A stretch of 64,000 bases of DNA from positions 124,298-188,297 of the forward strand of contig CAZRJH010000002.1 of assembly GCA_964600575.1 (NCBI GenBank), given 5' to 3'. The stretch is from an uncultured Gammaproteobacteria bacterium (GTDB lineage Bacteria; Patescibacteriota; Microgenomatia; UBA8517). A program made the translations under genes and the position numbers. The notes beneath the pieces were generated by a model, which was given only the letters and a program-made list of their open reading frames with translations, made no database searches and was not told the origin of the DNA. Shown here one piece after another: positions 3,625-44,689 of this stretch (its first letter is position 1; each line of letters starts with the position of its first letter).

Positions 3625-3629
3625 AACTA

Positions 3630-3992
3630 ATGAATAAAATAATAATCGTTGTTGTTGTCTTGTTGATGGGGGGGCTCGGATATTTCTTTTTAAATAAACC
3701 GAGTCAATCAAAACCTGAACAAACAATTGTCGAAACATCAACGGGTGCAGATGTTGTAATAAAAGACTTTAAATTTAATCCAGGGACATTAACAGTTAAA
3801 CCTGGCGAGGTTGTATCGATTGTTAATAAAGATGTAGCTGGTCACTCGTTTACAGCCGATGACGGTTCTGTAGATACAGGCGTACTTTCCCAAAATGCTG
3901 ACGGTAGTATTACAGCACCTTCAAAGCCGGGAACATACAAGTTTCATTGCATTCCACATCCTTCAATAACCGGAGTCTTGGTTGTTGAATAA
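3630..3992 (+). CDS. Cupredoxin (amicyanin/pseudoazurin-like) with N-terminal membrane anchor
   Basis: SD AAGGAGG lies 8 nt upstream of ATG 3630. The C-terminal copper-site pattern GTYKFHCIPHPSITGVLVV has His...Cys-x2-His, with Ile where the axial Met is expected. Confidence 0.7.
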   Translation: MNKIIIVVVVLLMGGLGYFFLNKPSQSKPEQTIVETSTGADVVIKDFKFNPGTLTVKPGEVVSIVNKDVAGHSFTADDGSVDTGVLSQNADGSITAPSKPGTYKFHCIPHPSITGVLVVE

Positions 3993-4009: not shown

Positions 4010-4894
4010 ATGATAGACATCAGGCAAAGTCGGGCTTATGCAAGATTTGTGGAAGCAGAGGGATGGAAGGTAGAGAGAATCCGTGAAACCAATTACTTCA
4101 TTCGGAAAATATTTTTCTTAGGCTCAATACTGAAGCTTCAAAGGCCGCAAAAAATCGATTTTAATGTAATATCAGATTTATGCCGTAAATACGGCGTTTA
4201 TCAAATAATAGTTGAGCCGAACTTAGCTTCCGGTTCCGTCTCCGCAACTAATCATAGTTTATTGTTGCATAAAGGCTTTAGGCTTGCCAAAAGCACATAT
4301 TTACCCTCAAAAACACTTCAAGTTAACCTAAAAAAACCGATAGGAAATATATTCGAGTCCTTTAAGAAAGATGCAAGGCAGGCTGTGAAAAGGGGAGAGC
4401 ACATAAAAACTAAAGATTACTCGACCGCTCAGGAAATAAAAGAATTTAGGAAATGGTGGAAAAAATCAGTTAAATACGACCGTTATGTGCCAAGTCTGGA
4501 AAGTTTAATTAATCTAAAAAAAAGTTTTCCACAACGGAACACCCTTTTCCTTGCGTCGCACAATATTTCTGGCAGAATTATAGGTGGAGCGATTTTCACG
4601 ATTTCCCATGAAAAAAATGATATAGTTTGTTACTATTGGCAAGCATTTACAAGCACTGAGGGTCGTACCTCCCTCTCCCAATACTCACTCCTCTATCAGG
4701 GAATACTATGGGCTAAAAGAACGGGTGCGAGCGTTTTTGACTTTGAAGGAATTTACGATGAAAGGTTTCCAAATAAAAGCTGGTATGGATTCACACACTT
4801 TAAAAAATCATTTGGAGGCTCCCCTGTTGAGTATCCGGGATGTTATATTAAATACAACTTATTAGGCCGATTTCTTGCAAAAAATGAAATATAA
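4010..4894 (+). CDS. FemAB-like or GNAT-fold acyl/aminoacyl-transferase paralog
   Basis: 294 aa. Motifs FKKDARQAVKRGE and GASVFDFEG resemble FemAB/FemX. This is the second such gene in the window. Confidence 0.5.
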   Translation: MIDIRQSRAYARFVEAEGWKVERIRETNYFIRKIFFLGSILKLQRPQKIDFNVISDLCRKYGVYQIIVEPNLASGSVSATNHSLLLHKGFRLAKSTYLPSKTLQVNLKKPIGNIFESFKKDARQAVKRGEHIKTKDYSTAQEIKEFRKWWKKSVKYDRYVPSLESLINLKKSFPQRNTLFLASHNISGRIIGGAIFTISHEKNDIVCYYWQAFTSTEGRTSLSQYSLLYQGILWAKRTGASVFDFEGIYDERFPNKSWYGFTHFKKSFGGSPVEYPGCYIKYNLLGRFLAKNEI

Positions 4895-6863: not shown

Positions 6864-9770
6864 TTAGTGATCTTCTTTGCAAAACATTGAATATTCACAC
6901 CCCTGAAGGCAAAACATATGCCCGGAGCACTTAAAGTCGGAGTTTTCAATTGCCACTTTAGCCCTAAATATTTCTTTAACAGCGTCCTCTAGCTGCTTTT
7001 TACTCCTTGTGGTCGAAATTTTTTCCTGAGTATCCAAAAAGTACAAGGATAGTTTTACCTTGGAGGGATCTTTAACATAGGGTTTTTTGTCTGACATTGT
7101 TGCGGCAAGTGCATAAAAGCTTAACTGTAAATTCTTGTCGACCTCTCTTTGTGTTGGAATATTTGCACTTGTTTTATAATCGATTATTTCTATATTTCCG
7201 TCTCCCAAGTCATCTACCCTATCAATAGCTCCTCCAACAAGAACCTTTGCACCGGTCTCGTCTTTCAACGAAAAAGAAAATCTATCCTCCATAAGTACGG
7301 GGTGTTTTCCTTTTGTAAATCCTTGCTGCAAAAATCCGGATAAATAAATTTTCCCTTTTTCCTTAAAATCCTTTTCGTGTTTTTTGTCCAAAAACCCTCT
7401 GTTGACCCAATTTTTATCCAAAAGATCATACATCAGTTTTAAGCCAGGTGTTTGGCCGAATGATACTTCGGCGTAAAAATCTTTAATGGTTGCGTGTATT
7501 GCGGTACCAAAACTGGCAGACGCGGAAGGCGGAGACGGCAATTTTAGTAATCTGCCTAGCTTAAAATGTAGAGGGCAGGTATCAAAGGTGTCTATATCTG
7601 AGTACGATAAATAATTTATATGTAACTTTTCTTGCTCGTTAACAACCTGTGGGTTCTTGGGTTTATATTCCAAAAAAGAAAGCTGTTCATTATAAATTTT
7701 TAGTTTTTCTTTTTTAGATTCTTTTGTACCCAAAGCTTCGGAAATAAATTGCGAAAGCTTTTTTTCTCTTTTCCCTTCCCCGTAAAAGTCTGCGGCAGTC
7801 AAAAATAACTTTTCTTTGGCACGTGTCATTGCCACATAAAAAAGTCTTCTTTCTTCTTCAAGGTGAAAGTCGCCAACCGGTAGTATTTCTTTTATCAATT
7901 CATTTGGAATCGGTATCGGTTCTCTGCGTTCAGTAGAAGGAAACCTCTGAGAAACCAAGTTAACAATGAAAACAACCGGAAACTCTAAGCCTTTTGACGA
8001 ATGCACAGTGAGAATGTTAACAGCATCCACCTCGTTCCAATCAGTGTCGGCTGCCAAAGGACTTTCGCCTGAATCTATAGAGAGTTCTATATAATCAACA
8101 ATCTCCGAAACCCCGGCACTTTCGTTTAAAGCCTCATAGCCTTTCAACTTATCAAAAAATTTTGCAATGTTTCTGGATTTTTTTTCCGCATTATCCCCTT
8201 CCCCACTTAGTAAGTCTTGCAGGATGCCAGACTCTTCAAGGAAAAAGTAAAGCACCTGTCCTGCGGTTTCTTTTTTGGCTAATTCTTGGTGTTTTATTAT
8301 TAATTTGATCACTTTATTTATACTGCTCTTTGTTTTTTCTGATACTTCGCATGAATCAACATTTTCCGCAATCTGGTACAAACTTTTGTTATTTTTTCTC
8401 GAGGCGGCAGAAAGCATCGCCAGGTCACTACCCGAAATTCCAAAGTAGTCGATAGAAAGAACCCTATATAAAGAAAGTGAGTCTTCTGTGTTGTACAAAA
8501 CTTTTAAATAAGCTATCAGGTCAATTACTTCCGACTGCTTGAATAACTTTCCAGGACCTAGAAATTGGGCGGGTATCCCATTTCTTGAGAAAGATTTAAC
8601 AAACGGGTCCGCATGGGAATTGGCCCTAACGAGTACAGCAAAATCTTTATACGAATAACCGAAATTCTCTATTAGATCTAAAATTTTTGAGCTAACAAGA
8701 TCGGCTTCGTTCTCTACCCTGTCTGCATGCAGAAACTCTACATTCTCCCCTTTTTCAAAAATCTGACTTTTAAGTTTTTTATCAATCTTTTCAACAACCT
8801 CCAAGCGATCGGGATTATTAAACTGAATAAGATCGTATGATTTATCTAATATTTCCTGAGTTGATCTGTAGTTTTTGGTTAAAACTGCTATTTCTGTTTT
8901 TGGAAAAGATTTTCTAAACTGTATAACATTACTTACAGCCGCCCCTCTAAATCTATAAATGCTTTGATCATCGTCTGCCACAACTGTTATGTTTCCGTTT
9001 TTGCCCGCCAATAGTTTTACTAGTTCATTTTGAGAAAAATTAGTATCTTGAAATTCGTCCACCAATATATACTTAAACTCTTTTTTATATTCCGCGAGTA
9101 TATTTGGACGAGTTCTAAAAAGTTTTAGGGTGTTTGTAATTAAATCTCCAAAGTCAACCAAGCCTTCTTTTGTTTTTAAGTTTGCATAGTCAACATAAAG
9201 ACCCGCAAGTTCTTTGTATTTTTTTACATCAAGTTTGTCTTCTTCGGTTTTTGGTTTGAGTGTTTCTACCCAGTTGTTGTATTTATCGGGCGTAATATCC
9301 TCATCCGAAAGTCTGGAAAAATGCTTCATAACCCCTTCTATAAATTTATTAGGATTTCCCAGGGGACGAAAATAATCTAAGTTAAAATTAAACAAGTTTT
9401 TTCTCAAAAGGCGAGCTGATTCTCCCTCGGTTAAAAGTTTGTAGTCTGTTGTCAAACCAATATTAAGATTTTCTCTTCTCAAAATCTTGTCGCAGAATGC
9501 ATGGAAGGTCATTATCCACATTTGTGTATAGCCGTAAGGCATTCCTATATCGACTCTTTCTTCCATTTCTTTTGCTGCCTTTTCGGTAAAAGTTAAGGCC
9601 AAAATCTCGGAAGGTTTTGCCTTTTTAGAAAGAATCAAATATTTAATTCTTTCTGTAATAACCGTGGTCTTTCCTGTACCTGCTCCGGCAATAATCAAAA
9701 GCGGCCCCTGGCCGTGTTTTATCGCCTTTTCTTGTTCTTTGTTAATTTTTGGGATTGCGTTTCCCGTCAT
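6864..9770 (-). CDS. UvrD-family helicase fused to a C-terminal RecB/AddB-type PD-(D/E)XK nuclease with a Cys cluster
   Basis: 968 aa. Walker A is AGAGTGKTT, with DEFQDTN and YRSTQEIL also present. The C-terminus has 4 Cys in KCSGHMFCLQGCEYSMFC, as in the AddB/Cas4 Fe-S nuclease. Confidence 0.8.
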   Translation of the reverse strand: MTGNAIPKINKEQEKAIKHGQGPLLIIAGAGTGKTTVITERIKYLILSKKAKPSEILALTFTEKAAKEMEERVDIGMPYGYTQMWIMTFHAFCDKILRRENLNIGLTTDYKLLTEGESARLLRKNLFNFNLDYFRPLGNPNKFIEGVMKHFSRLSDEDITPDKYNNWVETLKPKTEEDKLDVKKYKELAGLYVDYANLKTKEGLVDFGDLITNTLKLFRTRPNILAEYKKEFKYILVDEFQDTNFSQNELVKLLAGKNGNITVVADDDQSIYRFRGAAVSNVIQFRKSFPKTEIAVLTKNYRSTQEILDKSYDLIQFNNPDRLEVVEKIDKKLKSQIFEKGENVEFLHADRVENEADLVSSKILDLIENFGYSYKDFAVLVRANSHADPFVKSFSRNGIPAQFLGPGKLFKQSEVIDLIAYLKVLYNTEDSLSLYRVLSIDYFGISGSDLAMLSAASRKNNKSLYQIAENVDSCEVSEKTKSSINKVIKLIIKHQELAKKETAGQVLYFFLEESGILQDLLSGEGDNAEKKSRNIAKFFDKLKGYEALNESAGVSEIVDYIELSIDSGESPLAADTDWNEVDAVNILTVHSSKGLEFPVVFIVNLVSQRFPSTERREPIPIPNELIKEILPVGDFHLEEERRLFYVAMTRAKEKLFLTAADFYGEGKREKKLSQFISEALGTKESKKEKLKIYNEQLSFLEYKPKNPQVVNEQEKLHINYLSYSDIDTFDTCPLHFKLGRLLKLPSPPSASASFGTAIHATIKDFYAEVSFGQTPGLKLMYDLLDKNWVNRGFLDKKHEKDFKEKGKIYLSGFLQQGFTKGKHPVLMEDRFSFSLKDETGAKVLVGGAIDRVDDLGDGNIEIIDYKTSANIPTQREVDKNLQLSFYALAATMSDKKPYVKDPSKVKLSLYFLDTQEKISTTRSKKQLEDAVKEIFRAKVAIENSDFKCSGHMFCLQGCEYSMFCKEDH

Positions 9771-9883
9771 TTCAAAGTGAATTTTAACACGACAGGAAAT
9801 AAATATTTCATTTGGTATAATTCGCGGACCAGATCCAAAAAACTTAAGCTGGCACCTATAAAAAGGATCGTTAGGAGAAAATA

Positions 9884-10321
9884 ATGTCTACTGTCGGAAC
9901 GCTTTTGAGGCTCTTCCCTGAAAAGGGTGTTTTCCATGTTACCCTTACCCATACAATCTTTGAAGCAGTAGGAGAAATGAAAAGACAAAACATTAGCTCT
10001 TTGTTGATTACAAACGACGAAGATGTCTTTGTCGGCATTCTCTCCGAAAGGGATATCGCCTGGAAGGTGGTGTTGGACAAAAAAGATCCAAACACAACCA
10101 AAGTCGGTGAAGTAATGACACCCCGTAAGGAAATTGTTTCAGTAACGACTCATACCACTTTAACAGAATGTCTTGAGCTCATGCGGGATCACAACATAAG
10201 ACACCTGCCTGTTTTAGGTGGCGACGGCGAGCCTGTCGGAATAATTTCCCTGAAAGACATCACCAGACATCTGGAAATTTTAGCGGACGATCTGCAACGA
10301 TTTATAACCGGTCATCGCTAA
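9884..10321 (+). CDS. Tandem CBS-domain protein
   Basis: 145 aa. Two CBS-like repeats are present (LLITNDEDVFVGILSERDI and VGIISLKDITRHL). SD AGGAG lies upstream. Confidence 0.75.
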   Translation: MSTVGTLLRLFPEKGVFHVTLTHTIFEAVGEMKRQNISSLLITNDEDVFVGILSERDIAWKVVLDKKDPNTTKVGEVMTPRKEIVSVTTHTTLTECLELMRDHNIRHLPVLGGDGEPVGIISLKDITRHLEILADDLQRFITGHR

Positions 10322-10326
10322 CATAC

Positions 10327-10375
10327 TGTAACCAGCCTCTTTCGGCTTAAGACGAAACGCTGGTTACTTTTTTTC
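10327..10375. terminator. Bidirectional intrinsic terminator between convergent genes
   Basis: GTAACCAGC...GCTGGTTAC is a 9-bp stem with an inner TTTCG/CGAAA extension, followed by TTTTTTT. Confidence 0.6.
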
Positions 10376-11347
10376 TTCTAACTCTAAATTTTGGGACGAA
10401 GAAATTTTCTGTCCTAAAGTTTTAAAGGATGACTGCACATTATTAATAGTGTTTTGGGCATTCGTCATATGTTTCTGAAGTATGAAGATTGACTCTTCAA
10501 CCTTGGAATAATCCTTTTGCATCCCTCTTAATATCTTAAATACTTCGCGTGATTTGGCTTCCAACACTTTTCCCTCAAAAGACAAAAGTAAAACCTGGAG
10601 ATGAGCATACAATGTATTTGGTGAGACCGGATAAACCCTTGCATTTCTTGCAAAGTTTGAGAGTTCGGGAATATTAACCACTTCATAATAGACCGATTCC
10701 GAAGGAATATACATTAAAGCAAAATCCATTGTTCCCTCTTCCGGCAAAATATATTTTTTACTTATATCTTCTATGTGTTTTTTGACGTCAGAGGTGAAAT
10801 CTTTTTTTGCTTTAGTTCTATCAACCTCCTTTTCTCCTTTAACCATTAAGTTAAAATTTTCCATGGGGAACTTTGAGTCAATACAGAGCAAACCCGCCTC
10901 CGTTTTTAAAACAGCATCAACTTTTACCCCAGACTTGAAACCGTACTGTAAATGAAATGAATTTTTGGGAAAAGTTTGGCCTATCATTTCTTTTAAAACT
11001 TCCTCCCCTAGCCCACCCCTTAACTTTGGAGATTGAAGAAAATCCTGGAGAGATCGTATTCCTTTGCCTATTTCGCTCATTTCACCTAAATCTCTTTGCA
11101 CTTGCGAAATAACACGAGCCGCGTTATCCAAACGCAAATTCACGGCTTCCGTATTTTTTTGAAGAGAAATTAAAAGGTCACGCCTGTCTTCGCGAGATCC
11201 TGATTGTAAAGTCTTTATAATTTCCAAGAGTTCATCTGACGGTTTTTGCTTCTCCGAAATTTCGGATATTTTTTTGCCTAGATAAAATGCAAGAAAAACT
11301 ACCGCGACAACCAATATAATTAACAAGATGGTAAGATTCATATTCAT
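10364..11347 (-). CDS. rmuC: DNA recombination protein RmuC
   Basis: 327 aa with an N-terminal TM and coiled coil. The conserved RmuC C-terminal core is present (NFARNARVYPVSPNTLYAHLQVL). Confidence 0.75.
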   Translation of the reverse strand: MNMNLTILLIILVVAVVFLAFYLGKKISEISEKQKPSDELLEIIKTLQSGSREDRRDLLISLQKNTEAVNLRLDNAARVISQVQRDLGEMSEIGKGIRSLQDFLQSPKLRGGLGEEVLKEMIGQTFPKNSFHLQYGFKSGVKVDAVLKTEAGLLCIDSKFPMENFNLMVKGEKEVDRTKAKKDFTSDVKKHIEDISKKYILPEEGTMDFALMYIPSESVYYEVVNIPELSNFARNARVYPVSPNTLYAHLQVLLLSFEGKVLEAKSREVFKILRGMQKDYSKVEESIFILQKHMTNAQNTINNVQSSFKTLGQKISSSQNLELEEKK

Positions 11348-11364
11348 TATTAGTATATCAACCT

Positions 11365-11700
11365 ATGCGAAATCGGAGTAGGAACGAACAAATATTAAAA
11401 CGGAAGAATTTTTTACCAACTTTAGTTATTACCATATTTTTATGGATAGTACTTAGTATGTTGATTGAGTTTGTAGATCCCCAAGTCTTCGGCGCAGTTC
11501 CCATTTTTTTTATTACCTCCTTCTTTGCCTTTCTGTTTACTTTTTCGCTACTGTTCGCCTCCGGCAGGCGCGGGTTAATTTTTGCGCTATCTTCAACAAC
11601 ATATCTGTTCTTGGCGTATTTGGGAGTTGGAAACTATCTTAATCTCGTATTAATAGTTGCAATTGCAATATGTGTCGAGTTATATTTCGGCACCAAATGA
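11365..11700 (+). CDS. Small polytopic membrane protein (hypothetical)
   Basis: 111 aa with 3-4 hydrophobic helices. Confidence 0.45.
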   Translation: MRNRSRNEQILKRKNFLPTLVITIFLWIVLSMLIEFVDPQVFGAVPIFFITSFFAFLFTFSLLFASGRRGLIFALSSTTYLFLAYLGVGNYLNLVLIVAIAICVELYFGTK

Positions 11701-12038
11701 ATAAAAGTTTAAAAAACGGTCTCTATCGCACTTTTTTTCAAATGCTTGCAGATCTTAAAAAAACCGGTGAAATCGAAAGTTTTTGGTCCGACTTTTTAGG
11801 AGAAAAAGAATTGGATGGCCTGGTAAGAAAACTGGCAACTCTTTATTGGATCAAAAAAGGCAGGGATTTTGAAAACATTAAGACTAATCTGGGAACCACA
11901 AAGACGGATTTTGAGCAGGCAAAAAAAATACTAAGTAAAAAAGGTATCAGGTTGGCAATCAAAAAGATTGAGGCCGAGGAGTGGGCAAACATTTGGGCCG
12001 AAAAGATTAAAAAGCTGGGAACTAGGCGTGGAACCTAG
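11697..12038 (+). CDS. TrpR/YerC-like helix-turn-helix protein
   Basis: ATG at 11697 overlaps the upstream stop as ATGA. The sequence GLYRTFFQMLADLKKTGEIESFWSDFLGEKELDGL resembles the YerC/YecD Trp-repressor-like family. Confidence 0.5.
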   Translation: MNKSLKNGLYRTFFQMLADLKKTGEIESFWSDFLGEKELDGLVRKLATLYWIKKGRDFENIKTNLGTTKTDFEQAKKILSKKGIRLAIKKIEAEEWANIWAEKIKKLGTRRGT

Positions 12039-12050
12039 TATAATAGGCTC

Positions 12051-13493
12051 ATGGCTTCCAAAAAGGGTTCTTATTACCTTACAACCACACTTCCGTATGT
12101 TAACGCCAAGCCTCATATAGGTTTTGCTCTGGAAATAATTCAGGCCGATGTCGTGGCAAGATACAAAACCCTAGCAGGATACGATGTCTTTTTTAACACA
12201 GGTACAGACGAGCACGGACAAAAAATATATCAAAAAGCCCTCGAGGAGGGTAAAGATCCCCAGAGATACACGGACGAGTATGCGGCAAAATTTGATATTT
12301 TAAAAGACAAGTTGAATCTTACTTACAACAATTTCATACGAACTACCGACATTCACCACAAGGAGGCCGCCAAAGAGATTTGGAATAGATGCCTTAAAAA
12401 CGGGTACATAGAAAAAGGAATTTATAAGGCTAAATACTGCGTCGGTTGCGAACTTGAAAAACAAGATTCCGAACTTACTGAAGGAAAGTGCCCTATCCAC
12501 CCCAATCTTGAAATTCAATTAATAAAAGAGGAGAACTATTTTTTCAAATTTTCTAGACTTCAAAACAAACTTCTCGAATATTATCAAAAAAACCCAAATT
12601 TCATTGTCCCTAAACACAGGCTAACGGAAATTGAAAACTTCGTTAAAGAAGGTTTGCAAGATTTTAGTATTTCGCGCTTGAAAGAAAAAATGCCTTGGGG
12701 AGTTGCGGTTCCTGGTGATGATAAACAGGTAATGTATGTTTGGTTTGACGCTCTTACAAATTATATCTCGGCACTAGGCTGGCCCGAAAATAATGAAAAA
12801 TTTGAAACTTTTTGGGGCACAAACGATAAACCTAACGCGGTTCAGGTTGCGGGTAAGGACAACCTAAGACAACAATCCTCAATGTGGCAAGCGATGTTGT
12901 TTGCGGCGGGCCTACCCCCAAGTAAACAGATATTTATTCACGGATTTATAACTTCCGGCGGACAAAAGATGAGTAAGTCGTTAGGAAATGTTATTGATCC
13001 TATTGAATATGTAGAAAAATACGGGACAGACGCGCTAAGATACTATTTGCTTGCAAAAATAAATCCCACAGAAGACAGCGATTTTACAAAAGAGAAGTTT
13101 GAGGAAGCATATAACGGTGAGCTGGCAAACGGGCTGGGAAATCTTGTTGCAAGAGTTGCAAGACTTGCAGAAATTAACAAAATTTCCAATCAAACCAATA
13201 TTGCAAAAGCACTTTCAGAAGAAGTTGAAAAAAATATCATTGAATTTAGATTTGACTTTGCAATCGAGGCCGTTTGGAAGCAAATAAAAGAACTAGATTT
13301 GATAATCAACAAAAACGAACTCTGGAAAGAAACAAACCAAAAGACCGACATTCTACGACAAGTTATAAAAGGTATAACTCAAATAGCCACAGACCTTCAG
13401 CCTTTTCTACCTAACACATCGGAGAAAATCCATAATCAATTCGGCGGTGAGAAGATAACTTCTCAGAAGCCTTTGTTCCCAAGAGTGGCATAA
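12051..13493 (+). CDS. metG: Methionyl-tRNA synthetase (short form)
   Basis: Class I HIGH-region motif P-HIGF and a KMSKSLGN motif are present. The anticodon-binding C-terminus is MetRS-like. Confidence 0.93.
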   Translation: MASKKGSYYLTTTLPYVNAKPHIGFALEIIQADVVARYKTLAGYDVFFNTGTDEHGQKIYQKALEEGKDPQRYTDEYAAKFDILKDKLNLTYNNFIRTTDIHHKEAAKEIWNRCLKNGYIEKGIYKAKYCVGCELEKQDSELTEGKCPIHPNLEIQLIKEENYFFKFSRLQNKLLEYYQKNPNFIVPKHRLTEIENFVKEGLQDFSISRLKEKMPWGVAVPGDDKQVMYVWFDALTNYISALGWPENNEKFETFWGTNDKPNAVQVAGKDNLRQQSSMWQAMLFAAGLPPSKQIFIHGFITSGGQKMSKSLGNVIDPIEYVEKYGTDALRYYLLAKINPTEDSDFTKEKFEEAYNGELANGLGNLVARVARLAEINKISNQTNIAKALSEEVEKNIIEFRFDFAIEAVWKQIKELDLIINKNELWKETNQKTDILRQVIKGITQIATDLQPFLPNTSEKIHNQFGGEKITSQKPLFPRVA

Positions 13494-13508
13494 CCATATA
13501 ACAACAAA

Positions 13509-14999
13509 GTGAGAGAATTTATAATAAAAAACGAAAAGGTTATCTTGAGAATTCTAGAGATTGTCCCTGGTTTTGTTTCTTGGAATTTAATACTACTTCC
13601 CTACTGGGGCATTTTTGTCTTTCCGGTTTTTGTTGCCTACTTCGTTTTATTTTTCAATGTTTATTGGTTTTACCAATCACTCCAGATTGCGGTTACCTCT
13701 ATCGTATCCCACACCAGGATTCAGGCTGCTAAAGTTTACGACTGGATGGGTGATGTCAGGGACTTTCCGGACTACAAAAAAGTTAGGCATATTGTAATAA
13801 TTCCAACCTACAAAGAGCCTCTTCATATTCTAGAAAGAACTCTAAATTCCTTAGCCGTTCAGGAGATGTCGTTAAAACAAATTGTTCCCGTGATAGCCAT
13901 GGAGGCCAATGAGCCCAAAACAGATAGAGATATAAAACTAAAAGCAATTAAAGAAAAATTTGGCGATAAATTTGGAGGCCTTTTTACAACCGTACACGAG
14001 TTAAAGCCCGGAGAGGTTGCAGGAAAAGCATCTAATGAACGTTATGCAGCAATATGGGTTAAGAAAAACTATCTGGATAAAAACAAGATCGATATAAACT
14101 ATGTAACCGTCACCAGTTGTGACGCCGACCATAGATTTCACCCTAAACATTTTGCAGCCTTAACTTTTAAATTCTTGGACAACCCAGAAAGGTACAGAAT
14201 GTTTTGGCAACCCGCGGTTATGTTTTACAACAATATTTGGGAGATACCAGCCATTACTAGAGTCCCCAACACTCTAATGACAATATTTAATCTGTCTCAA
14301 CTGCCGAGACACGATAGACTTATTAACGCTCAAAATTATTCGTTGTCATTTAAACTTTTAGACAAAGTAGATTACTGGGACCCGGATAAAATTCCCGAGG
14401 ATTGGGGAATATTTTTTAAGGCATTTTATAAAGTTGGTGGTGGGATAGAAGTTGAACCTTTATACCTCCCTCTTATGGCGGATGCGGCTCAATCAAACTC
14501 GTTCTGGAAAACATTGAAAAACCAGTATCAACAAATTCAAAGATGGGCCTGGGGAGTGAGCGATGATCCATGGATAATTAAAAGCTATCTCTTGGCAAAA
14601 GATATTCCTTTTTGGGACAAAACAACTCGACTGTTTCAGGTAATATGGGCTCATTTTTTGTGGCCTGTTTACTGGTTTATTATAACCTTGGGGCTTACAA
14701 TACCCACACTTTTGAACCCCGCTTTTGGTAGAACCGCTCTAGGCTATACCATTCCAAAACTTTCTTCTTATATTCTTACAATATCCTTAGTCTTCCTTAT
14801 TATCATGTTTGTAATAGACAACATTCAAAAACCGGAAAAACCGAAAGACTTTCCTGCATGGCGAGTAATTCTTTTACCTTTTGAATTTGTACTTATGCCT
14901 ATTGCGGGGTTTTTCTTTGCTGCATTACCGGGACTAGATGCCCACACCAGATTGATGCTCGGAAAATATATGGAGTACAAAGTTACGGAAAAAGTTTAG
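13509..14999 (+). CDS. Membrane-embedded family-2 glycosyltransferase (cellulose-synthase-like topology)
   Basis: 496 aa. The GT2 N-terminal motif VIIPTYKEP, a DxD-like TSCDADH and a QxxRW-like QQIQRWAWG are present, with flanking TM helices. Confidence 0.7.
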   Translation: MREFIIKNEKVILRILEIVPGFVSWNLILLPYWGIFVFPVFVAYFVLFFNVYWFYQSLQIAVTSIVSHTRIQAAKVYDWMGDVRDFPDYKKVRHIVIIPTYKEPLHILERTLNSLAVQEMSLKQIVPVIAMEANEPKTDRDIKLKAIKEKFGDKFGGLFTTVHELKPGEVAGKASNERYAAIWVKKNYLDKNKIDINYVTVTSCDADHRFHPKHFAALTFKFLDNPERYRMFWQPAVMFYNNIWEIPAITRVPNTLMTIFNLSQLPRHDRLINAQNYSLSFKLLDKVDYWDPDKIPEDWGIFFKAFYKVGGGIEVEPLYLPLMADAAQSNSFWKTLKNQYQQIQRWAWGVSDDPWIIKSYLLAKDIPFWDKTTRLFQVIWAHFLWPVYWFIITLGLTIPTLLNPAFGRTALGYTIPKLSSYILTISLVFLIIMFVIDNIQKPEKPKDFPAWRVILLPFEFVLMPIAGFFFAALPGLDAHTRLMLGKYMEYKVTEKV

Positions 15000-15032
15000 T
15001 TGGAATCTATTTTATCTAATTTGTTATTAATC

Positions 15033-15998
15033 TTATTGATCTAAAGATTTGTAATATTCGACGGTCTTGGCAATGCCACTTCCAAGGTTGGTGACCGGCT
15101 CCCACTCCAAAGCTTCTTTGACTTTAGAAATATCCGGACATCTTTGTTTTGGATCGTCCTTGGGAAGATCTTTGTAGACAAACTCTGACTTTGATGCAGT
15201 TAAATCTTTTATTTTTTGAGCCAAATCAAACATTGTATATTCTTCTGGGTTACCCAGGTTAAAAATCTGACCGCCAAGATCATCCGTAAACATAACTTTA
15301 CAAATTCCGGAAACCATGTCGTCGATATAACAAAAGGACCTGGTTTGGCCGCCGTCGCCATAAATTGTAATATCTTTATCGTTTAATGCTTGATTAATAA
15401 AATTGCTAATCACCCGTCCGTCGTCTTTCTGCATCCTGGGGCCGTATGTATTAAAAATTCTTACAATTCGGGCGTCTAAGGAATACTTATTTATAAAAAC
15501 ATAAGCCGCAGCCTCGGCAAACCGTTTACTTTCGTCGTAGCAAGCACGAGGACCAAAAGAATTTACATTTCCCCAATATTCCTCTTTTTGGGGAGAGACT
15601 TTAGGGTCCCCATAAATTTCCGAGGTCGAGGCAATAAGTATTCTGGACTTATTATTTTTTGCCAAATTCAAGACATTCAGAGTACCCAATGAGTTAGCAA
15701 GAAGCGTTTCTTCCGGATTTTCATAATAACCTTTTGGAGAAGCAGGGGAAGCAAGGTGAAAAATCATATCAAAATCAAGCTCGAACGCTCGATTTTTCGG
15801 ATCAACAACATCACCTTTTACAAAAGTAAAACCTTCTTTTTGCAAAAGACCAGATATGTTTTCTTCCCTACCTGTAATCAAATTATCAAGCACGGTAACT
15901 TTGTTGCCTTCATCTACTAATTTTTGCGACAAGTGGCTGCCTATAAACCCGGCTCCGCCGGTTATAAGTATGTTTTTCATTGGCATATTATACCTCAT
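15033..15998 (-). CDS. NAD-dependent sugar-nucleotide epimerase/dehydratase, UDP-glucuronate decarboxylase (UXS)-like
   Basis: Rossmann motif ILITGGAGFIGSH and catalytic YDESKR are present. The length (321 aa) is typical of UXS/RmlB. Confidence 0.85.
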   Translation of the reverse strand: MRYNMPMKNILITGGAGFIGSHLSQKLVDEGNKVTVLDNLITGREENISGLLQKEGFTFVKGDVVDPKNRAFELDFDMIFHLASPASPKGYYENPEETLLANSLGTLNVLNLAKNNKSRILIASTSEIYGDPKVSPQKEEYWGNVNSFGPRACYDESKRFAEAAAYVFINKYSLDARIVRIFNTYGPRMQKDDGRVISNFINQALNDKDITIYGDGGQTRSFCYIDDMVSGICKVMFTDDLGGQIFNLGNPEEYTMFDLAQKIKDLTASKSEFVYKDLPKDDPKQRCPDISKVKEALEWEPVTNLGSGIAKTVEYYKSLDQ

Positions 15999-16034
15999 AT
16001 TGAGTTGAATTTACCTTGTGATACACTGATTTAT

Positions 16035-17534
16035 ATGCGTTCATTTTGGAATAAACTTCACGCAATTGGTGATATTCTCCACCTCCCCGAAATTCCAAAC
16101 TGGCTTTTGGGACTTATGGTTTTGGTTATGATACTCCGCGTTCCCAGTTTTTTTGAACCAAATTACTACGGTGACGAGATGATTTATCTAACGCTTGGTC
16201 AGGGTGTCAGACAAGGAGTGACATTATATAAAGATTTGCACGACAACAAGCCTCCATTACTATATTTAACAGCGGCAGCGGCAGGAAATATTTTCTGGTT
16301 CAAAGTTATTTTGGCTTTCTGGAGTATTGTCACTATTTATTACTTTTTCAAACTTGCAGAAAAGTTGTTTAAGGGTAGGGATAAAACGGTTAAGCTTGCC
16401 ACACTTGTATTTGGCTTATTAACCACCCTTCCACTTATGGAGGGGAATACTGTGAACGCTGAGCTCTTTATGATTTTACCTTCGATAACGGCTCTTCTGA
16501 TTTTGCTTTCGGAGGGACTAAATACAAAAAAAATATTTTTTGCAGGTTTTTTATTTGGAATAGCTGCCCTTTTTAAGATTCCTGCGTTGTTTGAACTACC
16601 GGTTATCGTAGTTTACTGGTTACTAACCGACACTAAAAATTGGAAAAGAGTCCTTCTAAGTTCAATCGTTCTCGCACTAGGGTTTGCGGCGCCGATATTC
16701 CTTACAATTGTGTGGTACTTTGCTCAGGGAGCCGTGCCAGAGTACATCAAAGCAGCATTTCTACAAAATGTCGGTTATTTAAGTAGTTTTAGGCCAGACG
16801 ATATTCAAAAACCATTTTTAGTCAGAAACCTTCCTTTATTAATAAGGGCAAGTATCGTCTTTTTGGGTGTTTTGGTTTTGTTTATTAAAAGACAAAAGCT
16901 GTCAAAAAACTTTATTTTATTGACCACCTGGACACTTTTTACCCTGTTTGCGATTACCCTATCAGAAAGACCATATCCTCACTATTTTGTACAAACACTC
17001 GCACCATTTTCTTTTTTGATTGCAATGTTTTTTTCAGAAGACCGTATAGATCAGGTATTGGTTATTTTTCCGATTACCATAAGTCTTTTTGTTCCGGTTT
17101 TTTATAAGTTTTATTTTTACCCCACAACTGCTTATTACTCCAGATTTGCCAGTTTTGCATCTGGAAAGATTACAAAAGCCCAATATTTCACCGGTTTTGC
17201 TTCGACTACTAACCGAAACTACAAAATATCCGAATTTATTGTTCAGTCCAGTCACCCTAAAGACAAAATTTTTATGTGGGATCCTGACTCGGCAGCGATA
17301 TATGCCATGTCCAGAAGACTTCCGCCTACAAAATTCACAGTGCCCTATCATGTAGATGATTTTTCGTCTAAAGAGGAAGTTGCCAAACAAATAATTGCCA
17401 ACCCTCCCAAATTTATTATTCTTACAAGTCAATATCCGTATACGGAGCTTAACCTTCTTATTAGACAAAGATACCTTCTTATACAGCAAATTGACAACGC
17501 AAGCATTTATACCAGAATAGATTTGGCCAGGTAG
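16035..17534 (+). CDS. GT-C fold membrane glycosyltransferase (ArnT/PMT, GT39/GT83-like)
   Basis: ATG 16035 is chosen to avoid an overlap with the upstream gene. The first-loop motif YGDEMIYL with DE is present and there are ≥10 TM helices. Confidence 0.65.
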   Translation: MRSFWNKLHAIGDILHLPEIPNWLLGLMVLVMILRVPSFFEPNYYGDEMIYLTLGQGVRQGVTLYKDLHDNKPPLLYLTAAAAGNIFWFKVILAFWSIVTIYYFFKLAEKLFKGRDKTVKLATLVFGLLTTLPLMEGNTVNAELFMILPSITALLILLSEGLNTKKIFFAGFLFGIAALFKIPALFELPVIVVYWLLTDTKNWKRVLLSSIVLALGFAAPIFLTIVWYFAQGAVPEYIKAAFLQNVGYLSSFRPDDIQKPFLVRNLPLLIRASIVFLGVLVLFIKRQKLSKNFILLTTWTLFTLFAITLSERPYPHYFVQTLAPFSFLIAMFFSEDRIDQVLVIFPITISLFVPVFYKFYFYPTTAYYSRFASFASGKITKAQYFTGFASTTNRNYKISEFIVQSSHPKDKIFMWDPDSAAIYAMSRRLPPTKFTVPYHVDDFSSKEEVAKQIIANPPKFIILTSQYPYTELNLLIRQRYLLIQQIDNASIYTRIDLAR

Positions 17535-17557
17535 ATCCAATTGTAGTAAAATCGACT

Positions 17558-17914
17558 GTGTCAAACAAAATCAAGTTGGCCCCACTAGAAGGAATCCCCA
17601 ATAGAGAGTATGTATATTTTTCTTTGGTATTAATGATTGTTTCGGGTTTGATTTTTGTCATTATTAGAAGTTTTTTACCCCCGGTTGTCCCTTTCTTTTA
17701 TGGTAGCCCTATTGGCGAAAAACAGCTTGTTCCACAAATGGGGTTACTTTTAGCGCCATTGCTGTCGCTTGTAATTACAGTTTTTAATCTATTTTTAGCT
17801 TCCAAAATGCAAGATAAATTTGTTAAGCAGGTTTTGATTGCCGGGTCAGTATTGTTTTCACTTTTTATGGCAATTGCGTTTGTTAAAGTCGTTTTTTTGG
17901 TAGGTTTATTTTAA
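17558..17914 (+). CDS. Small membrane protein (hypothetical)
   Basis: 118 aa with 3 hydrophobic helices. It is tightly packed between glycosyltransferase genes. Confidence 0.45.
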   Translation: MSNKIKLAPLEGIPNREYVYFSLVLMIVSGLIFVIIRSFLPPVVPFFYGSPIGEKQLVPQMGLLLAPLLSLVITVFNLFLASKMQDKFVKQVLIAGSVLFSLFMAIAFVKVVFLVGLF

Positions 17915-19029
17915 TGGTCAATTTAAGGCAAATTTTTTTAATACCCTGGCTTGTCGCCATAGCTGTTTCTTTCTTTGCCACCCCCCTTGTTATTAAATAC
18001 GCAAAAAAATTGGGCATAGTGGACGATCCAAAAAAGAACAAACACCCCAAAGTTATCCATACATACCCGATACCACGAGGCGGAGGAATTCCTATTTTTT
18101 TGGCGCTGATAGCCTGTATTCTTATGTTTCTACCCTTAGACAAACAGACAGTGGGGATAATTTTAGGAGCTACCCTTCTGGTTTTAATGGGTTTTTTGGA
18201 TGACAAACACAACCTCAACCCCTATTTAAGACTTATATTGGGTATTGTGGCCTCCCTTATTCCCGTTGCAGCAGGTATCGGAATATCGTTTATCTCAAAT
18301 CCCTTGACTGCTATGGGCATAAATAATCCTTTGGGAGGAATCATAGATTTAAGCACCCCCAGGTTGGATATTGTTCTTTTTGGGACTACACACAGCATTT
18401 GGATACTTAGTGATATTCTTGCGATTATTTGGATAACATTTTTAATGAATATTGTTAATATGGGTGCCAAAGGGGTGGATGGCCAGATGAGCGGAGTTAC
18501 TGTAGTTGCCGCACTGACAATAGCCTTCTTATCTCTCAGATATTCTGCGGATATAACCCAGTGGCCTGTAATAATATTGGCTGCAATAACTTCAGGAGCC
18601 TACTTAGGTTTTTTGCCGTGGCATATGTATCCACAAAAAATAATGCCTGGCTATGGCGGAAGCACACTTGCGGGGTATTTATTGGCAATTCTTTCTATAC
18701 TTTCAACAACCAAGGCTGGAGCACTAATGGTGGTTTTAGGTGTTCCTTTAATTGACACGGGTTATACAATAATCAGAAGAATTTTAGCAAAAAGATCACC
18801 TGTTTGGGGAGATAGAGGCCACCTTCATCATCGCCTTTTAGATATTGGAATGACAAAGCAGCAAGTTGCGGTTTTCTATTGGGTAATTACAGGCGTTCTT
18901 GGATTTCTAGCTCTTAATTTGAATACAGCAACCAAGGTCTATACAATGATAGGCATAGCGGCCATAATAGGAGGATTAATTTTGTGGTTAACATATCGAC
19001 CGAAAAATCAACAAAAAGAGAATCTATAA
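17914..19029 (+). CDS. GT4 polyprenyl-phosphate sugar-1-phosphate transferase (MraY/WecA family)
   Basis: 371 aa polytopic protein. Family motifs FLDDKHNL, NMGAKGVDG and HLHHRLLD are present. Confidence 0.8.
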   Translation: MVNLRQIFLIPWLVAIAVSFFATPLVIKYAKKLGIVDDPKKNKHPKVIHTYPIPRGGGIPIFLALIACILMFLPLDKQTVGIILGATLLVLMGFLDDKHNLNPYLRLILGIVASLIPVAAGIGISFISNPLTAMGINNPLGGIIDLSTPRLDIVLFGTTHSIWILSDILAIIWITFLMNIVNMGAKGVDGQMSGVTVVAALTIAFLSLRYSADITQWPVIILAAITSGAYLGFLPWHMYPQKIMPGYGGSTLAGYLLAILSILSTTKAGALMVVLGVPLIDTGYTIIRRILAKRSPVWGDRGHLHHRLLDIGMTKQQVAVFYWVITGVLGFLALNLNTATKVYTMIGIAAIIGGLILWLTYRPKNQQKENL

Positions 19030-19049
19030 TATCCGCAGTCATAAAAGTA

Positions 19050-19955
19050 ATGCGGCCAATTCATTGGGTCAAAAACCTATCACTTTTTGCCGCGATTCTT
19101 TTGACCGGTGAATTTTTTGATAGAGCTCAATTTGTAAATGTTTTTTGGGGATTTATTGCTTTCTGTTTTGCAACTTCGGCAACCTATATAATAAATGATG
19201 TTTTTGATGTAAAAAATGATAGACTCCACCCCACAAAACGTTTTAGACCGATAGCCTCCGGCAGTTTGCCTATTGCTTTAGCACTAGTTCAAGGGCTTGG
19301 CATGGCCGCCGTAGCTCTTTTTATGAGTGCTACTTTTAATTCAATTTTTTTCTTTCTGGTGATGGGATACCTTATACTTCAGCTTTTTTACAGCATATAC
19401 CTAAAAAACATAGCAATTTTGGATATTCTTATAATAGCCACAGGCTTTATCATCAGGGTTTACGCGGGAGCATTTGCAATTAATGCTCACCTATCTGTTT
19501 GGTTTCTACTTTGTGTAATTTCTACCGCACTTTTTCTTGCTTCGGGAAAAAGAAGAGCGGAGTTAAACTTGGCCCAAAATACGGCAAGTCTAACCAGAAA
19601 AAGTCTGGATAATTACAAAAAGGAACTTTTGAATTCGTTTGTAACCATGTTCGGAAATGCTGCATGGATGAGCTGGTCGCTTTTTACTTTTTTTGAAAGT
19701 CCTAAAGCAACCCTCCCCTTCTGGTTGGTGCTTGCAGAACTCAGTCGTACAACGACAATTGACAAACTCTTAATGATAACAATTCCTATCACTATTTTTG
19801 GAATAATGAGATATGAGTTTCTTATATTTGAAGGAAAAAGCGAAACCCCGGAAAGGTTACTTTTGACAGATAAGGCTCTTATTGCCGCTATCGGAATGTG
19901 GGTTTTTGTTGTGTATTGGGTTCTATATAGCGGGGTCTCTATATCAGGGATTTGA
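19050..19955 (+). CDS. UbiA-family prenyltransferase, decaprenyl-phosphate 5-phosphoribosyltransferase (DPPR synthase)-like
   Basis: Asp-rich motif YIINDVFDVKNDRLHPTKRFRPIASG and a second motif further downstream are present. ATG 19050 is chosen to avoid a 46-nt overlap. Confidence 0.7.
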   Translation: MRPIHWVKNLSLFAAILLTGEFFDRAQFVNVFWGFIAFCFATSATYIINDVFDVKNDRLHPTKRFRPIASGSLPIALALVQGLGMAAVALFMSATFNSIFFFLVMGYLILQLFYSIYLKNIAILDILIIATGFIIRVYAGAFAINAHLSVWFLLCVISTALFLASGKRRAELNLAQNTASLTRKSLDNYKKELLNSFVTMFGNAAWMSWSLFTFFESPKATLPFWLVLAELSRTTTIDKLLMITIPITIFGIMRYEFLIFEGKSETPERLLLTDKALIAAIGMWVFVVYWVLYSGVSISGI

Positions 19956-20894
19956 TGATGGCGGGCTTGCATCTTCACCGTTTTGGTCTACCACCTTGGC
20001 ATATTGTCCTGAAACCCAACCCGTTATCCCGTTGGGCAGCCCGGGTTTTGGATCATCATATTGAATCTTTAACCAGCCGCTGGCGTCATCTTTCTGTAAA
20101 AACGGATATTTACTTCCAGGTTTAACTTCTGCTATTTCATCTCCATCCGACCCGGGAGCTGTTCTTACCCTTAAAAAACCTGTTGGGGTTTTTAAAACTT
20201 CTACAAAAAGACCCGAAGATGGTGTTGGCGTGGGAACTGCCTCAGTAAGCGGCTCGCTCGATTTGGAAAGTTTGGCGTAAACAGTAAGTCTTAAACCGTC
20301 AGCAACATTTAGTGTTATAGACCGATCCGTATACCCCGGTGATTTTATTGTTATCAAATGAGCCGCGGGTGAAATAACCGAGTTTTTATACGGAGAGAAC
20401 CCTCTCGGTACACCATCTAGGGATATTTGGGCATTGTCAGGTGTAGTAACCACAACCAAACTCGTCTCACCTGTGGAAATTTTGTCATAAGAAATGATGT
20501 CCCCGGCAGAAGATTCTTCCGATTCTCCAAATTCTCTTCTTACAAGGGTTTCTATTCCGGTAACTAAGTTTATTTTTGTTTCGAAGGGTTGCAATTTAGA
20601 GTTACCCTCAGGAACCAGTTTTATTGTTATTTCACCTTCATCGTGAGAGATCTTAAGCGGAGTTCTACCTAAAAAAGCACCGTTTACATAAACACTGGAT
20701 TCAGGGCTAGTTTTGACATTCAATCCGGCGGGCTTGGGTTTTGTGATACCCAACACAAAAAACAATGTCCCAACCAGAAAGAGTATCGAAAAAAGTAAAA
20801 TTAACCAGGTTTTCAGATTCTTCATACGCCCGAGTTTATCAAAGCCAATGGGGTCTTGACAACCAAAAGTTAATAAAATATTATAAATTAGCAC
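19944..20894 (-). CDS. Membrane-anchored PEGA-domain protein
   Basis: N-terminal TM. A PEGA-like stretch VYVNGAFLGRTPLK is followed by beta-rich repeats. Confidence 0.5.
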   Translation of the reverse strand: MLIYNILLTFGCQDPIGFDKLGRMKNLKTWLILLFSILFLVGTLFFVLGITKPKPAGLNVKTSPESSVYVNGAFLGRTPLKISHDEGEITIKLVPEGNSKLQPFETKINLVTGIETLVRREFGESEESSAGDIISYDKISTGETSLVVVTTPDNAQISLDGVPRGFSPYKNSVISPAAHLITIKSPGYTDRSITLNVADGLRLTVYAKLSKSSEPLTEAVPTPTPSSGLFVEVLKTPTGFLRVRTAPGSDGDEIAEVKPGSKYPFLQKDDASGWLKIQYDDPKPGLPNGITGWVSGQYAKVVDQNGEDASPPSSNP

Positions 20895-21399: not shown

Positions 21400-21472
21400 C
21401 GGCCAGATGGCGAAGTGGAAACGCTGCGGTCTGCAAAACCGCCATGCGCGGGTTCGATTCCCGCTCTGGCCT
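21400..21472 (+). tRNA. tRNA-Cys (anticodon GCA)
   Basis: Acceptor stem GGCCAGA/TCTGGCC. The anticodon loop is CTGCAAA and the T-loop is GGTTCGATTCC. CCA is not encoded. Confidence 0.8.
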
Positions 21473-21531
21473 CTCGTAAACTCGAGTCCGAGTCGTAATC
21501 GATAATGCTTTAAAAGGACTTTGTTGCATGG

Positions 21532-43895: not shown

Positions 43896-43898
43896 AAT

Positions 43899-44461: not shown

Positions 44462-44479
44462 TGTTTTTGGCTAATGAAG

Positions 44480-44620
44480 TTAAACGGTCAATTTTTTCCT
44501 ACCTTTGAGTCTGCGCGTAGCAAGAACTCTTCTACCTGTTTTAGTCTTCATTCTTTCTCTGAAACCATGCTTTGAGCGTCTTTTGGTTTTGCTGGGTTGA
44601 TATGTTCTCTTTGTAGCCAT
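44480..44620 (-). CDS. rpmH: 50S ribosomal protein L34
   Basis: Hand translation of the minus strand gives [46 protein letters not shown] (46 aa). It is below the ORF-track length cutoff. Confidence 0.85.
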
Positions 44621-44689
44621 ATTGCAAATTGAATTATATCAACTACAAAGGGTTTTAATCAATATGGAAGCAAATACCACTTGACGGAT

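Follow-up and report, generated by a model that had tools for sequence, protein, structure and literature searches.

Does an uncultured bacterium of the candidate phyla radiation (CPR) modify its cell envelope with a lipid-linked pentofuranose, and which of the genes clustered around the putative donor synthase take part? The question is raised by a 64,000-nucleotide stretch of contig CAZRJH010000002.1 (assembly GCA_964600575.1, forward strand, positions 124,298 to 188,297; hereafter, the window), in which a UbiA-superfamily gene of the decaprenyl-phosphoribose (DPPR) synthase type lies among glycan genes that an earlier reading of the sequence (the original prediction) had taken as one gene set for lipid-linked pentose glycosylation. 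Our results lean toward the view that the core operon, which encodes in order a glycosyltransferase of the GT-C fold, a small membrane protein (tm118), a divergent WecA-like polyprenyl-phosphate sugar-1-phosphate transferase (PNPT), and a polyprenyl-phosphate 5-phosphoribosyltransferase (PPPRS), makes up a locus that Woesebacteria (Microgenomates, CPR) conserve for envelope-glycan biosynthesis. This leaning, slightly better than even, concerns the pathway as a whole, i.e. a lipid-linked pentofuranose donor derived from phosphoribosyl pyrophosphate (PRPP), its use by the GT-C on an envelope glycan, and priming by the PNPT. Because the PPPRS groups with DPPR synthases and is operonic with the GT-C and the PNPT, a polyprenyl-phosphate-pentofuranose donor system acting on the envelope is the best reading of the locus.

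In the pathway that we propose, PPPRS would act at the cytoplasmic face to convert polyprenyl-phosphate and PRPP into polyprenyl-phosphate-beta-D-ribofuranose-5-phosphate, dephosphorylation and flipping would be carried out by proteins outside those found here, and, on the outer side of the membrane, the GT-C would attach the pentofuranose, most likely ribofuranose, to a glycan or protein acceptor. The PNPT, with its three-transmembrane (TM) partner tm118, may prime a polyprenyl-diphosphate-linked acceptor from a UDP-sugar, and an upstream family 2 glycosyltransferase (GT2) resembling the cellulose synthase BcsA and hyaluronan synthase (HAS) may make a backbone polymer, perhaps the acceptor itself. 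The slot between the GT2 and GT-C genes would hold lineage-variable diversifiers, here a UDP-xylose synthase (UXS; UDP-glucuronate decarboxylase) and elsewhere a second GT-C or nothing.

Identity of the UbiA homolog

The gene at 18984-19955 (plus strand) encodes a protein of 323 residues with no extra domain, which, judging from profile hidden Markov models (HMMs), substrate-binding residues, and a tree, is very probably a polyprenyl-phosphate phosphoribosyltransferase. It scores 235.7 bits against the NCBIfam model NF008978 ("decaprenyl-phosphate phosphoribosyltransferase"), above the equivalog cutoff of 207; the sister models NF008977 (196 bits) and NF008976 (180 bits) both remain under their own cutoffs. 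Against the sequence of the Rv3806c cryo-EM structure 8j8j, its score is 145 bits (E 2.6e-41), with 39% of 224 aligned residues identical; against an archaeal UbiA, it is 30 bits. An aromatic or heme prenyltransferase of the UbiA/MenA/CyoE kind, serving quinone or heme synthesis, might be suspected from the superfamily match (Pfam PF01040, 78.7 bits) and from the JGI auto-annotation of many homologs as "4-hydroxybenzoate polyprenyltransferase," but the UbiA, heme o synthase, and chlorophyll synthase models reach only 19-35 bits (ubiA_proteo 19, heme o synthase 32, versus 236 for DPPR synthase). Similarly, phmmer gives 143.8 bits for Rv3806c versus 8.6, 7.6, and -3.2 bits for E. coli UbiA, CyoE, and MenA, and a neighbor-joining tree places the protein inside the Rv3806c clade, which a long branch parts from these prenyltransferases. 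The HMM scores, the similarity to Rv3806c, and the tree thus refute a quinone or heme prenyltransferase identity, to which we assign a vanishingly small probability. In the placement against Rv3806c, UbiA, and MenA that the original prediction had proposed, the protein groups with Rv3806c, and the DPPR-synthase-type assignment stands.

The residues point in the same direction. The motif on which the original prediction was based (NDxxDxxxD...RP) is present as N71-D72-x-x-D75-x-x-x-D79...R88-P89. The 13 residues that form the Rv3806c binding sites for Mg2+-PRPP, for the ribose and 5-phosphate, and for decaprenyl phosphate (R22, K28, Y70, N73, D77, K87, R90, Q135, Y138, K143, Y157, K191, and K208; Gao et al., PMC10994848) align with R24, K30, Y68, N71, D75, K85, R88, Q133, Y136, K141, F155, K189, and K206, so that 12 are identical, the exception being Y157, replaced by F155; some mycobacteria also have a Phe at this position. 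Among 28 homologs, the aligned residues vary little or not at all. Because the phosphoribose-binding sites of Rv3806c (K28, Y70, and Q135) are not conserved across the UbiA superfamily (PMC10994848), the retention of K30, Y68, and Q133 is a discriminating test, and it speaks against the prenyltransferase reading. The annotation itself is not new, since the NCBI pipeline already names CPR homologs DPPR synthase. The PPPRS family comprises 1,615 clusters at 50% identity (E <= 1e-30), in which the whole Woesebacteria clade falls to one representative at 66% identity, the next relatives being at 46-47%.

Gene order, overlaps, and conservation

The five genes of the original prediction (GT2, UXS, GT-C, PNPT, and PPPRS) lie at the coordinates and in the families that it gave; it overlooked the 118-residue gene at 17558-17914. 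The core operon runs on the plus strand from the GT-C (16035-17534) through tm118 (17558-17914) and PNPT (17914-19029) to PPPRS. The GT-C gene ends 23 nt before tm118, the tm118 stop codon overlaps the PNPT start (TAATG), and the GTG start of PPPRS lies inside the PNPT gene (46-nt overlap), 8 nt downstream of an AGGAGG Shine-Dalgarno sequence (18970-18975, plus strand) that is itself within the 3' end of the PNPT gene. Overlaps between PNPT and PPPRS recur elsewhere (46 nt in locus L002, 34 nt in L004, 55 nt in L086, and 8 nt in L087).

Conservation was assessed in about 80 species-level Woesebacteria/Microgenomates loci, counts being taken over loci with enough flanking sequence. The contig scan relied on C-terminal motifs specific to the lineage, and all loci that it yielded were Woesebacteria-like, the wider diversity being reached through a 50%-representative search and cluster look-ups. 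The GT-C (76/76), tm118 (77/78), and PNPT (79/79) genes occur at fixed offsets from PPPRS in the Woesebacteria loci, and their clustering is not due to chance. Median identities are 70.6% for the GT2, 62% for the PNPT, and 52% for the GT-C, versus 45% for the adjacent methionyl-tRNA synthetase (MetRS); the locus is under stronger sequence constraint than this neighbor.

Outgroups retain much of the block. In L087 (PPPRS 44% identical), the order is GT2-GT-C-tm117-PNPT-PPPRS-PEGA, with GroEL and MetRS relocated. In L086 (PPPRS also 44% identical), GT-C-tm115-PNPT-PPPRS is embedded in a larger glycan cluster (8960-16954 of that locus) that encodes an MptA_B-family GT-C, a GT2, a PMT_2 GT-C, a GT2-GtrA_DPMS_TM polyprenyl-phosphate-sugar synthase, two epimerase/dehydratases of the short-chain dehydrogenase/reductase (SDR) type, and a UDP-glucose/GDP-mannose dehydrogenase. 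L088 (PPPRS 41% identical) carries a GT2, then a tm118-PNPT fusion, then PPPRS, with no adjacent GT-C.

The GT-C enzyme and its donor

The protein encoded at 16035-17534 shows a multi-TM core, a conserved YYGDE motif after TM1, and structural similarity to solved GT-C enzymes, its first extracytoplasmic loop carrying a putative catalytic acidic motif; by this fold match, it is a GT-C-fold glycosyltransferase whose putative donor is a lipid-phosphate-linked sugar. Its closest structural neighbors include mannosyl- and glucosyltransferases no less than ArnT or AftA, the match being to the GT-C fold in general. At the sequence level, E. coli ArnT goes undetected by the profile of the GT-C family. 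Neither the window nor the surrounding +-10 kb in 80 loci contains a GtrB/Dpm1-type polyprenyl-phosphate-hexose synthase, and the PPPRS is therefore the sole lipid-monophosphate sugar donor synthase near the GT-C.

A divergent PNPT and its probable small membrane partner

The PNPT belongs to Pfam Glycos_transf_4 (84.6 bits, cutoff 27). Among NCBIfam models, WecA (TIGR02380) gives 87.8 bits, under its cutoff of 326, followed by archaeal MraY (52.8 bits) and MraY (45.7 bits), and the profile of the family scores E. coli WecA at 66 bits versus 36 for MraY. That the protein is the cell's own MraY was rejected, given its greater closeness to WecA, an HLHH motif that is not of the MraY type, and a position outside a dcw context. 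An alignment of 81 family sequences keeps the LDD and GDRGHLHH motifs. Throughout this alignment (homologs L006-L088), DGxDG is replaced by AKGVDGQ, and the "MGD" Asp, which corresponds to D252 of DPAGT1 and to the D of the VFMGD stretch of both WecA and MraY from E. coli, is replaced by PGY (WGF in L088). These substitutions suggest that the PNPT forms a distinct subfamily. In DPAGT1, where D252 coordinates Mg2+, 7% of the activity remains in the D252A variant and D252N surpasses the wild type in activity (PMC6218659), so the loss of the Asp need not inactivate the enzyme.

The adjacent tm118 (118 residues) has three hydrophobic segments and a conserved LPPxVPLFYGxPxGExQL motif; it belongs to no known family, and no Pfam or PDB match was obtained, even with 21 members at E <= 10. 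In outgroup L088 (6026-7540), a tm118 module constitutes the N-terminus of a 504-residue PNPT (tm118 HMM 35.2 bits, residues 31-126). In view of this fusion, tm118 probably works as a module together with the adjacent PNPT rather than as an independent flippase. A GtrA or SMR flippase was also rejected on other grounds, as tm118 matches no such family in Pfam or PDB, is unlike E. coli ArnE/ArnF, and has three TM segments rather than four.

No feature of the locus is more constant than the PNPT-PPPRS pair (79/79, overlapping, and kept in L086, L087, and L088), a constancy that raises the idea that the PNPT and tm118 act on the PPPRS product itself, a lipid-anchored ribose 5-phosphate phosphomonoester, giving an undescribed intermediate, or that the PNPT is a non-catalytic scaffold. 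The lack of a 5-phosphatase in the window and the PGY/WGF and AKGVDGQ replacements would be in line with such coupled chemistry. We nevertheless judge it very unlikely, as it is purely inferential and the reaction is without precedent; the PNPT still carries the DD and HxHH motifs known from ordinary WecA-type enzymes, the behavior of DPAGT1 D252N indicates that Asp loss need not alter the chemistry (PMC6218659), and the phosphatase may simply be encoded elsewhere.

The upstream GT2 and the variable slot

The GT2 (13509-14999, plus strand) was assigned to the processive-synthase type (BcsA/HAS-like) from Pfam (Glyco_trans_2_3, 33.5 bits, cutoff 27), motifs, and Foldseek. Among 30 homologs, no variation occurs in IIPTYKEP, GKASNE, CDADH, PEDWG, or Q342-x-x-R345-W346, the residues E103, D205-A-D207, E297-D298, and Q342..R345-W346 forming the set expected of a processive membrane synthase, and TM helices flank the catalytic region at both ends (two N-terminal and about four C-terminal). 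The top Foldseek matches are the Chlorella virus hyaluronan synthase 7sp7 and the cellulose synthase BcsA 5ej1; the AlphaFold (AF2) model on which they are based is of low confidence (pLDDT 59.7), and only its GT-A core and the ranking of matches were used. The gene lies upstream of the GT-C in 53/58 loci.

Between the two genes, the interval (15000-16034 in the window; loci L006-L085) varies from 15 bp to 5.3 kb. Here, it holds the minus-strand UXS gene (15033-15998, with 15980 as the probable true start), whose product matches human UXS1 (2b69) over its full length (348 bits, E 5e-103, 51% identity). The alignment includes the STSE, YDESK, and RIFNTYGPRM motifs, and the next PDB family is at 145 bits; by this similarity, the protein is a genuine UDP-glucuronate decarboxylase. 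The slot contains UXS in 28 of the 58 related loci and a second PMT_2-type GT-C of about 430 residues (30 bits, above cutoff) in 18, and is empty in about 10. Sporadic cargo includes an ABC exporter (L011), a PIN toxin/antitoxin pair (L058), a group II intron reverse transcriptase (L018), a GT2 (L064), and Bac_transf-like and EamA genes (L044). Because it occupies this variable slot and is present in fewer than half of the loci, UXS is an accessory, lineage-variable diversifier. Its sequence indicates that it would make UDP-xylopyranose for Leloir enzymes, outside the lipid-linked pentofuranose route, and the common "pentose" theme is then a chemical coincidence rather than the mark of one pathway. 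Of the pentose donor gene set put forward in the original prediction, the operonic PPPRS, GT-C, and PNPT are retained, and UXS is set apart on a nucleotide-sugar route. A role for UXS as a lipid-linked ribofuranose-to-xylofuranose epimerase, like ORF13 of the Citrobacter system described below, was considered unlikely, given its identity to human UXS1. A UDP-glucose dehydrogenase, which would supply the UXS substrate, was not found in the window.

One pathway or several

With genes so stably arranged, it has to be asked whether they share a pathway at all. PPPRS could serve another acceptor and the GT-C another donor, with the GT2, UXS, and PNPT independent of both and all of them held together by the rigid synteny of a streamlined genome. 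Housekeeping neighbors (MetRS, GroES/EL, an M23 peptidase, and HhH-GPD) are likewise syntenic across most of the 80 loci, UXS is dispensable at its position, L088 has the GT2, tm118-PNPT, and PPPRS without an adjacent GT-C, and the structural neighbors of the GT-C are mostly mannosyltransferases, all of which would suit separate pathways. On the other hand, the reading frames overlap and carry translational-coupling signals, the block is kept at 41-44% PPPRS identity despite reshuffled surroundings, PPPRS is found repeatedly with GT-Cs (L086, L087, L089, and L090), and no other lipid-sugar donor synthase lies nearby; the PPPRS of L098, which adjoins large Pfam-less proteins of unknown fold, is counted as a further context on this side. 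Taken with these points, a set of separate pathways that are merely co-located is fairly unlikely, and we continue to prefer a shared pentofuranose pathway.

A number of observations weigh against that pathway. Since the entire neighborhood is syntenic in Woesebacteria, synteny within the clade is weak evidence for a functional link, and a promoter/terminator scan returned no more sites than shuffled sequence. The GT-C fold is silent on donor specificity. The activity of the PNPT is uncertain because the enzyme has no Asp at the position where DPAGT1 has its Mg2+ ligand D252. The GT2 is missing from the L086 block, and its part in the pathway is assigned by adjacency alone. Neither a PAP2 or HAD(-PRP) phosphatase nor a MATE, GtrA, or SMR flippase was found in the 64-kb window, so that two required steps, dephosphorylation and flipping, lack a candidate there. 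Finally, the CPR version of the pathway is a prediction from sequence and comparison.

Which pentofuranose

The first enzyme of the locus is the same as that of the decaprenyl-phosphoryl-arabinose (DPA) pathway, and it is conceivable that the PPPRS product is dephosphorylated and epimerized to polyprenyl-phosphate-D-arabinofuranose by enzymes encoded elsewhere in the genome, one or more GT-Cs then building D-arabinofuranose (Araf) structures, as happens in Mycobacterium or in the glycosylation of P. aeruginosa pilin by TfpW. The second PMT_2-type GT-C found in the slot of 18 related loci would fit this arabinan-type route, as would sister clades of the Shapirobacteria type (L089, 1431-10561; L090, 5703-11232; L091, 4636-7924), in which PPPRS adjoins an FAD oxidoreductase of the uncharacterized NCBIfam family NF005560/PRK07233 (367-374 bits), followed in L089 and L090 by two to four tandem PMT/PMT_2 GT-Cs. 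This oxidase could be a DprE1 analog for a lipid-linked pentose, and by analogy, the Shapirobacteria-type layout is the more reminiscent of arabinan-type chemistry. No such gene accompanies the Woesebacteria operon. Pfam scans for a DprE1 (FAD_binding_4)/DprE2 (adh_short)-like pair, which the original prediction had suggested seeking in the genome, and tblastn with a CPR FAD-oxidase query for a PRK07233-type oxidase were both negative for the window and for +-10 kb in 80 Woesebacteria loci; an arabinan-type (DPA) pathway is thus not indicated. In characterized systems, moreover, the epimerases are clustered with PPPRS (PMC11127046). We therefore regard the arabinan-type route as unlikely for this operon. 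Since neither DprE1/DprE2 nor any other epimerase is linked, ribofuranose is more likely than arabinofuranose as the sugar of the proposed pathway, the unepimerized product being the most economical prediction.

Comparison with characterized systems

Pentofuranosylation by PPPRS and GT-C enzymes has been biochemically proven in Citrobacter. In the three-component system of Kelly et al. (2024), PPPRS makes undecaprenyl-phosphate-ribofuranose from PRPP, a flippase exports it, and a GT-C (GT136) adds ribofuranose to the finished glycan, optional epimerases leading to xylofuranose (Xylf) or Araf (PMC11127046). Citrobacter youngae O1/O2 encodes these functions as ORF15 (PPPRS-PRP), ORF14 (MATE flippase), and ORF12 (GT-C/GT136), with an optional SDR epimerase, ORF13 (PMC11127046). 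ORF12 accepts synthetic farnesyl-phosphate-ribofuranose as donor, and Kelly et al. report farnesyl-phosphate-ribose-5-phosphate at m/z 513 and farnesyl-phosphate-ribose at m/z 435. Because such systems are widespread outside Actinobacteria (PMC11127046), the "classically actinobacterial" character that the original prediction had ascribed to the pathway does not hold. The study of Kelly et al. makes no mention of CPR (PMC11127046), and our search of the literature found no description of a DPPR synthase in Patescibacteria/CPR.

The Woesebacteria locus shares with Citrobacter a UbiA-type PPPRS that has the same N-D-x-x-D...D catalytic loop and is clustered with a GT-C, a nucleotide-sugar/SDR gene nearby, and the logic of the route, i.e. 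PRPP to polyprenyl-phosphate-ribofuranose, then transfer outside the membrane. Unlike its Citrobacter counterpart, however, the Woesebacteria PPPRS has no fused HAD phosphoribose phosphatase domain, the window likewise lacking one, and none of the three flippase families is represented there. Whereas the WecA of Citrobacter is encoded elsewhere, the PNPT and the 3-TM protein are overlapping operon members here; a BcsA/HAS-type GT2 is linked; and the SDR is by sequence a bona fide UXS, set apart from a lipid-linked-sugar epimerase. The host is a monoderm-like CPR bacterium without a lipopolysaccharide O antigen, and the locus is a universal core trait of a CPR class, not an add-on that varies with serotype.

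The mycobacterial DPA/arabinogalactan pathway (Rv3806c, the Rv3807c phosphatase, DprE1/DprE2, Rv3789, AftA/AftB/Emb, WecA, and GlfT1/2) has a homologous first enzyme. There too, GT-Cs adjoin the PPPRS gene, the acceptor is primed by a PNPT, and its backbone is the work of a GT2, as proposed here; the Mycobacterium tuberculosis locus Rv3805c-Rv3809c likewise brings together a GT-C, UbiA, GT2, and nucleotide-sugar enzyme. The Woesebacteria window differs in having no DprE1/DprE2, PAP2 phosphatase, or GtrA-family protein, its GT2 is a membrane-embedded QxxRW synthase whereas GlfT2 is soluble or peripheral, and its sugar is probably not arabinose. D-Arabinofuranosylation of group IV pilins in Pseudomonas aeruginosa, by the GT-C TfpW with Rv3806c, DprE1, and DprE2 homologs, also combines PPPRS and GT-C outside Actinobacteria; a protein acceptor is possible in our locus as well, where a PEGA/SH3 protein with a Pro/Thr-rich linker is encoded alongside, but linked epimerases and an adjacent pilin gene are absent. 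The ArnT/undecaprenyl-phosphate-4-amino-4-deoxy-L-arabinose pathway differs in its donor synthase, which is an ArnC-type GT2 rather than the PRPP-dependent UbiA-type enzyme found here; ArnB/ArnD are absent from the Woesebacteria locus, as are ArnE/F (HMM comparison negative).

Surroundings of the locus

Convergent with PPPRS and overlapping its 3' end (19944-19955), the gene at 19944-20894 (minus strand) encodes a surface protein with an N-terminal TM helix and PEGA (63 bits) and SH3_3 (36.5 bits) domains by Pfam. It follows PPPRS in 75/80 loci and in outgroup L087, and its Pro/Thr/Ser-rich linker is variable among loci; a role as acceptor, wall-binding partner, or O-glycosylation target is speculative. 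Three genes upstream of the GT2, a conserved multi-TM protein of 111 residues (tm111, 11365-11700), belonging to no family, is found in 46 related loci with 52% median identity; its candidacy as a flippase had no support, as it matches no family and is unlike E. coli ArnE/ArnF. Farther downstream, an 890-residue DUF4012 protein (38085-40757) and a Wzy_C (O-antigen ligase/polymerase-like) membrane protein (41373-42584) were considered as pathway members and rejected, as no homologs lie near PPPRS in related loci.

The window is AT-rich (GC 0.37-0.43), and the nearest relatives of all cluster proteins come from metagenome-assembled genomes (MAGs) labeled Woesebacteria, Microgenomates, or Patescibacteria. 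About 25 kb downstream of the glycan operon lies the replication-origin region with yidC, rnpA, dnaA, and dnaN (43062-47562); two FemAB-family genes (1405-2355 and 4010-4894), of the kind involved in peptidoglycan cross-bridge formation, are also present, and GroES/EL is recorded in the locus of a syntenic relative. Because of this setting, the glycan locus is in the core chromosome of a CPR bacterium.

Other features were noted in passing. The sole tRNA of the window is a tRNA-Cys (GCA) at 21401-21473. Cupredoxin-domain proteins are encoded at 3621-3992 and 36233-37162, one of them adjoining a glucose/sorbosone-dehydrogenase-like gene (2395-3624). A block of higher GC (48174-63874, 0.41-0.44) resembles a type IV secretion or conjugation-like apparatus, with a TraG-like P-loop ATPase (51023-53029), a PrgI-like protein (53749-54891), two small T4SS_pilin-like proteins (63190-63874), and four open reading frames of 600-950 codons without a Pfam match (48174-51020, 55442-58156, 58206-60020, and 60170-62839). 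Many Woesebacteria-like MAG records (L006, L007, L010, and others) are titled "uncultured Gammaproteobacteria bacterium," and one Alphaproteobacteria, an apparent mislabeling.

Implications for CPR envelope biology

The CPR, or Patescibacteria, account for a large share of bacterial diversity, and yet, to our knowledge, almost nothing is known of their cell envelopes, which mediate an episymbiotic lifestyle. The locus offers a concrete and testable handle on this biology, as it predicts a PRPP-derived pentofuranose in the envelope. Through it, the paradigm of pentofuranosylation by PPPRS and GT-C would reach another phylum-level group and a novel gene architecture, in which PPPRS is coupled to a PNPT without a recognizable phosphatase or flippase nearby, and the locus flags a divergent PNPT subfamily and its family-less 3-TM partner for biochemistry. 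In a bolder version, which we consider distinctly unlikely, Woesebacteria and related Microgenomates would all build a core envelope polymer or glycoconjugate with a PRPP-derived pentofuranose through an undescribed architecture, where a non-canonical PNPT and its 3-TM partner, coupled to PPPRS and perhaps acting on the phosphoribosyl-lipid, dispense with the known phosphatase and flippase. If true, the lipid-linked intermediate and the PNPT subfamily would both be new, and a major CPR group would have a cell-wall component that defines its lineage. Since ribofuranose and arabinofuranose are, as far as we know, absent from animal glycans, the predicted pentofuranose structures could additionally be used to mark or probe these uncultured organisms.

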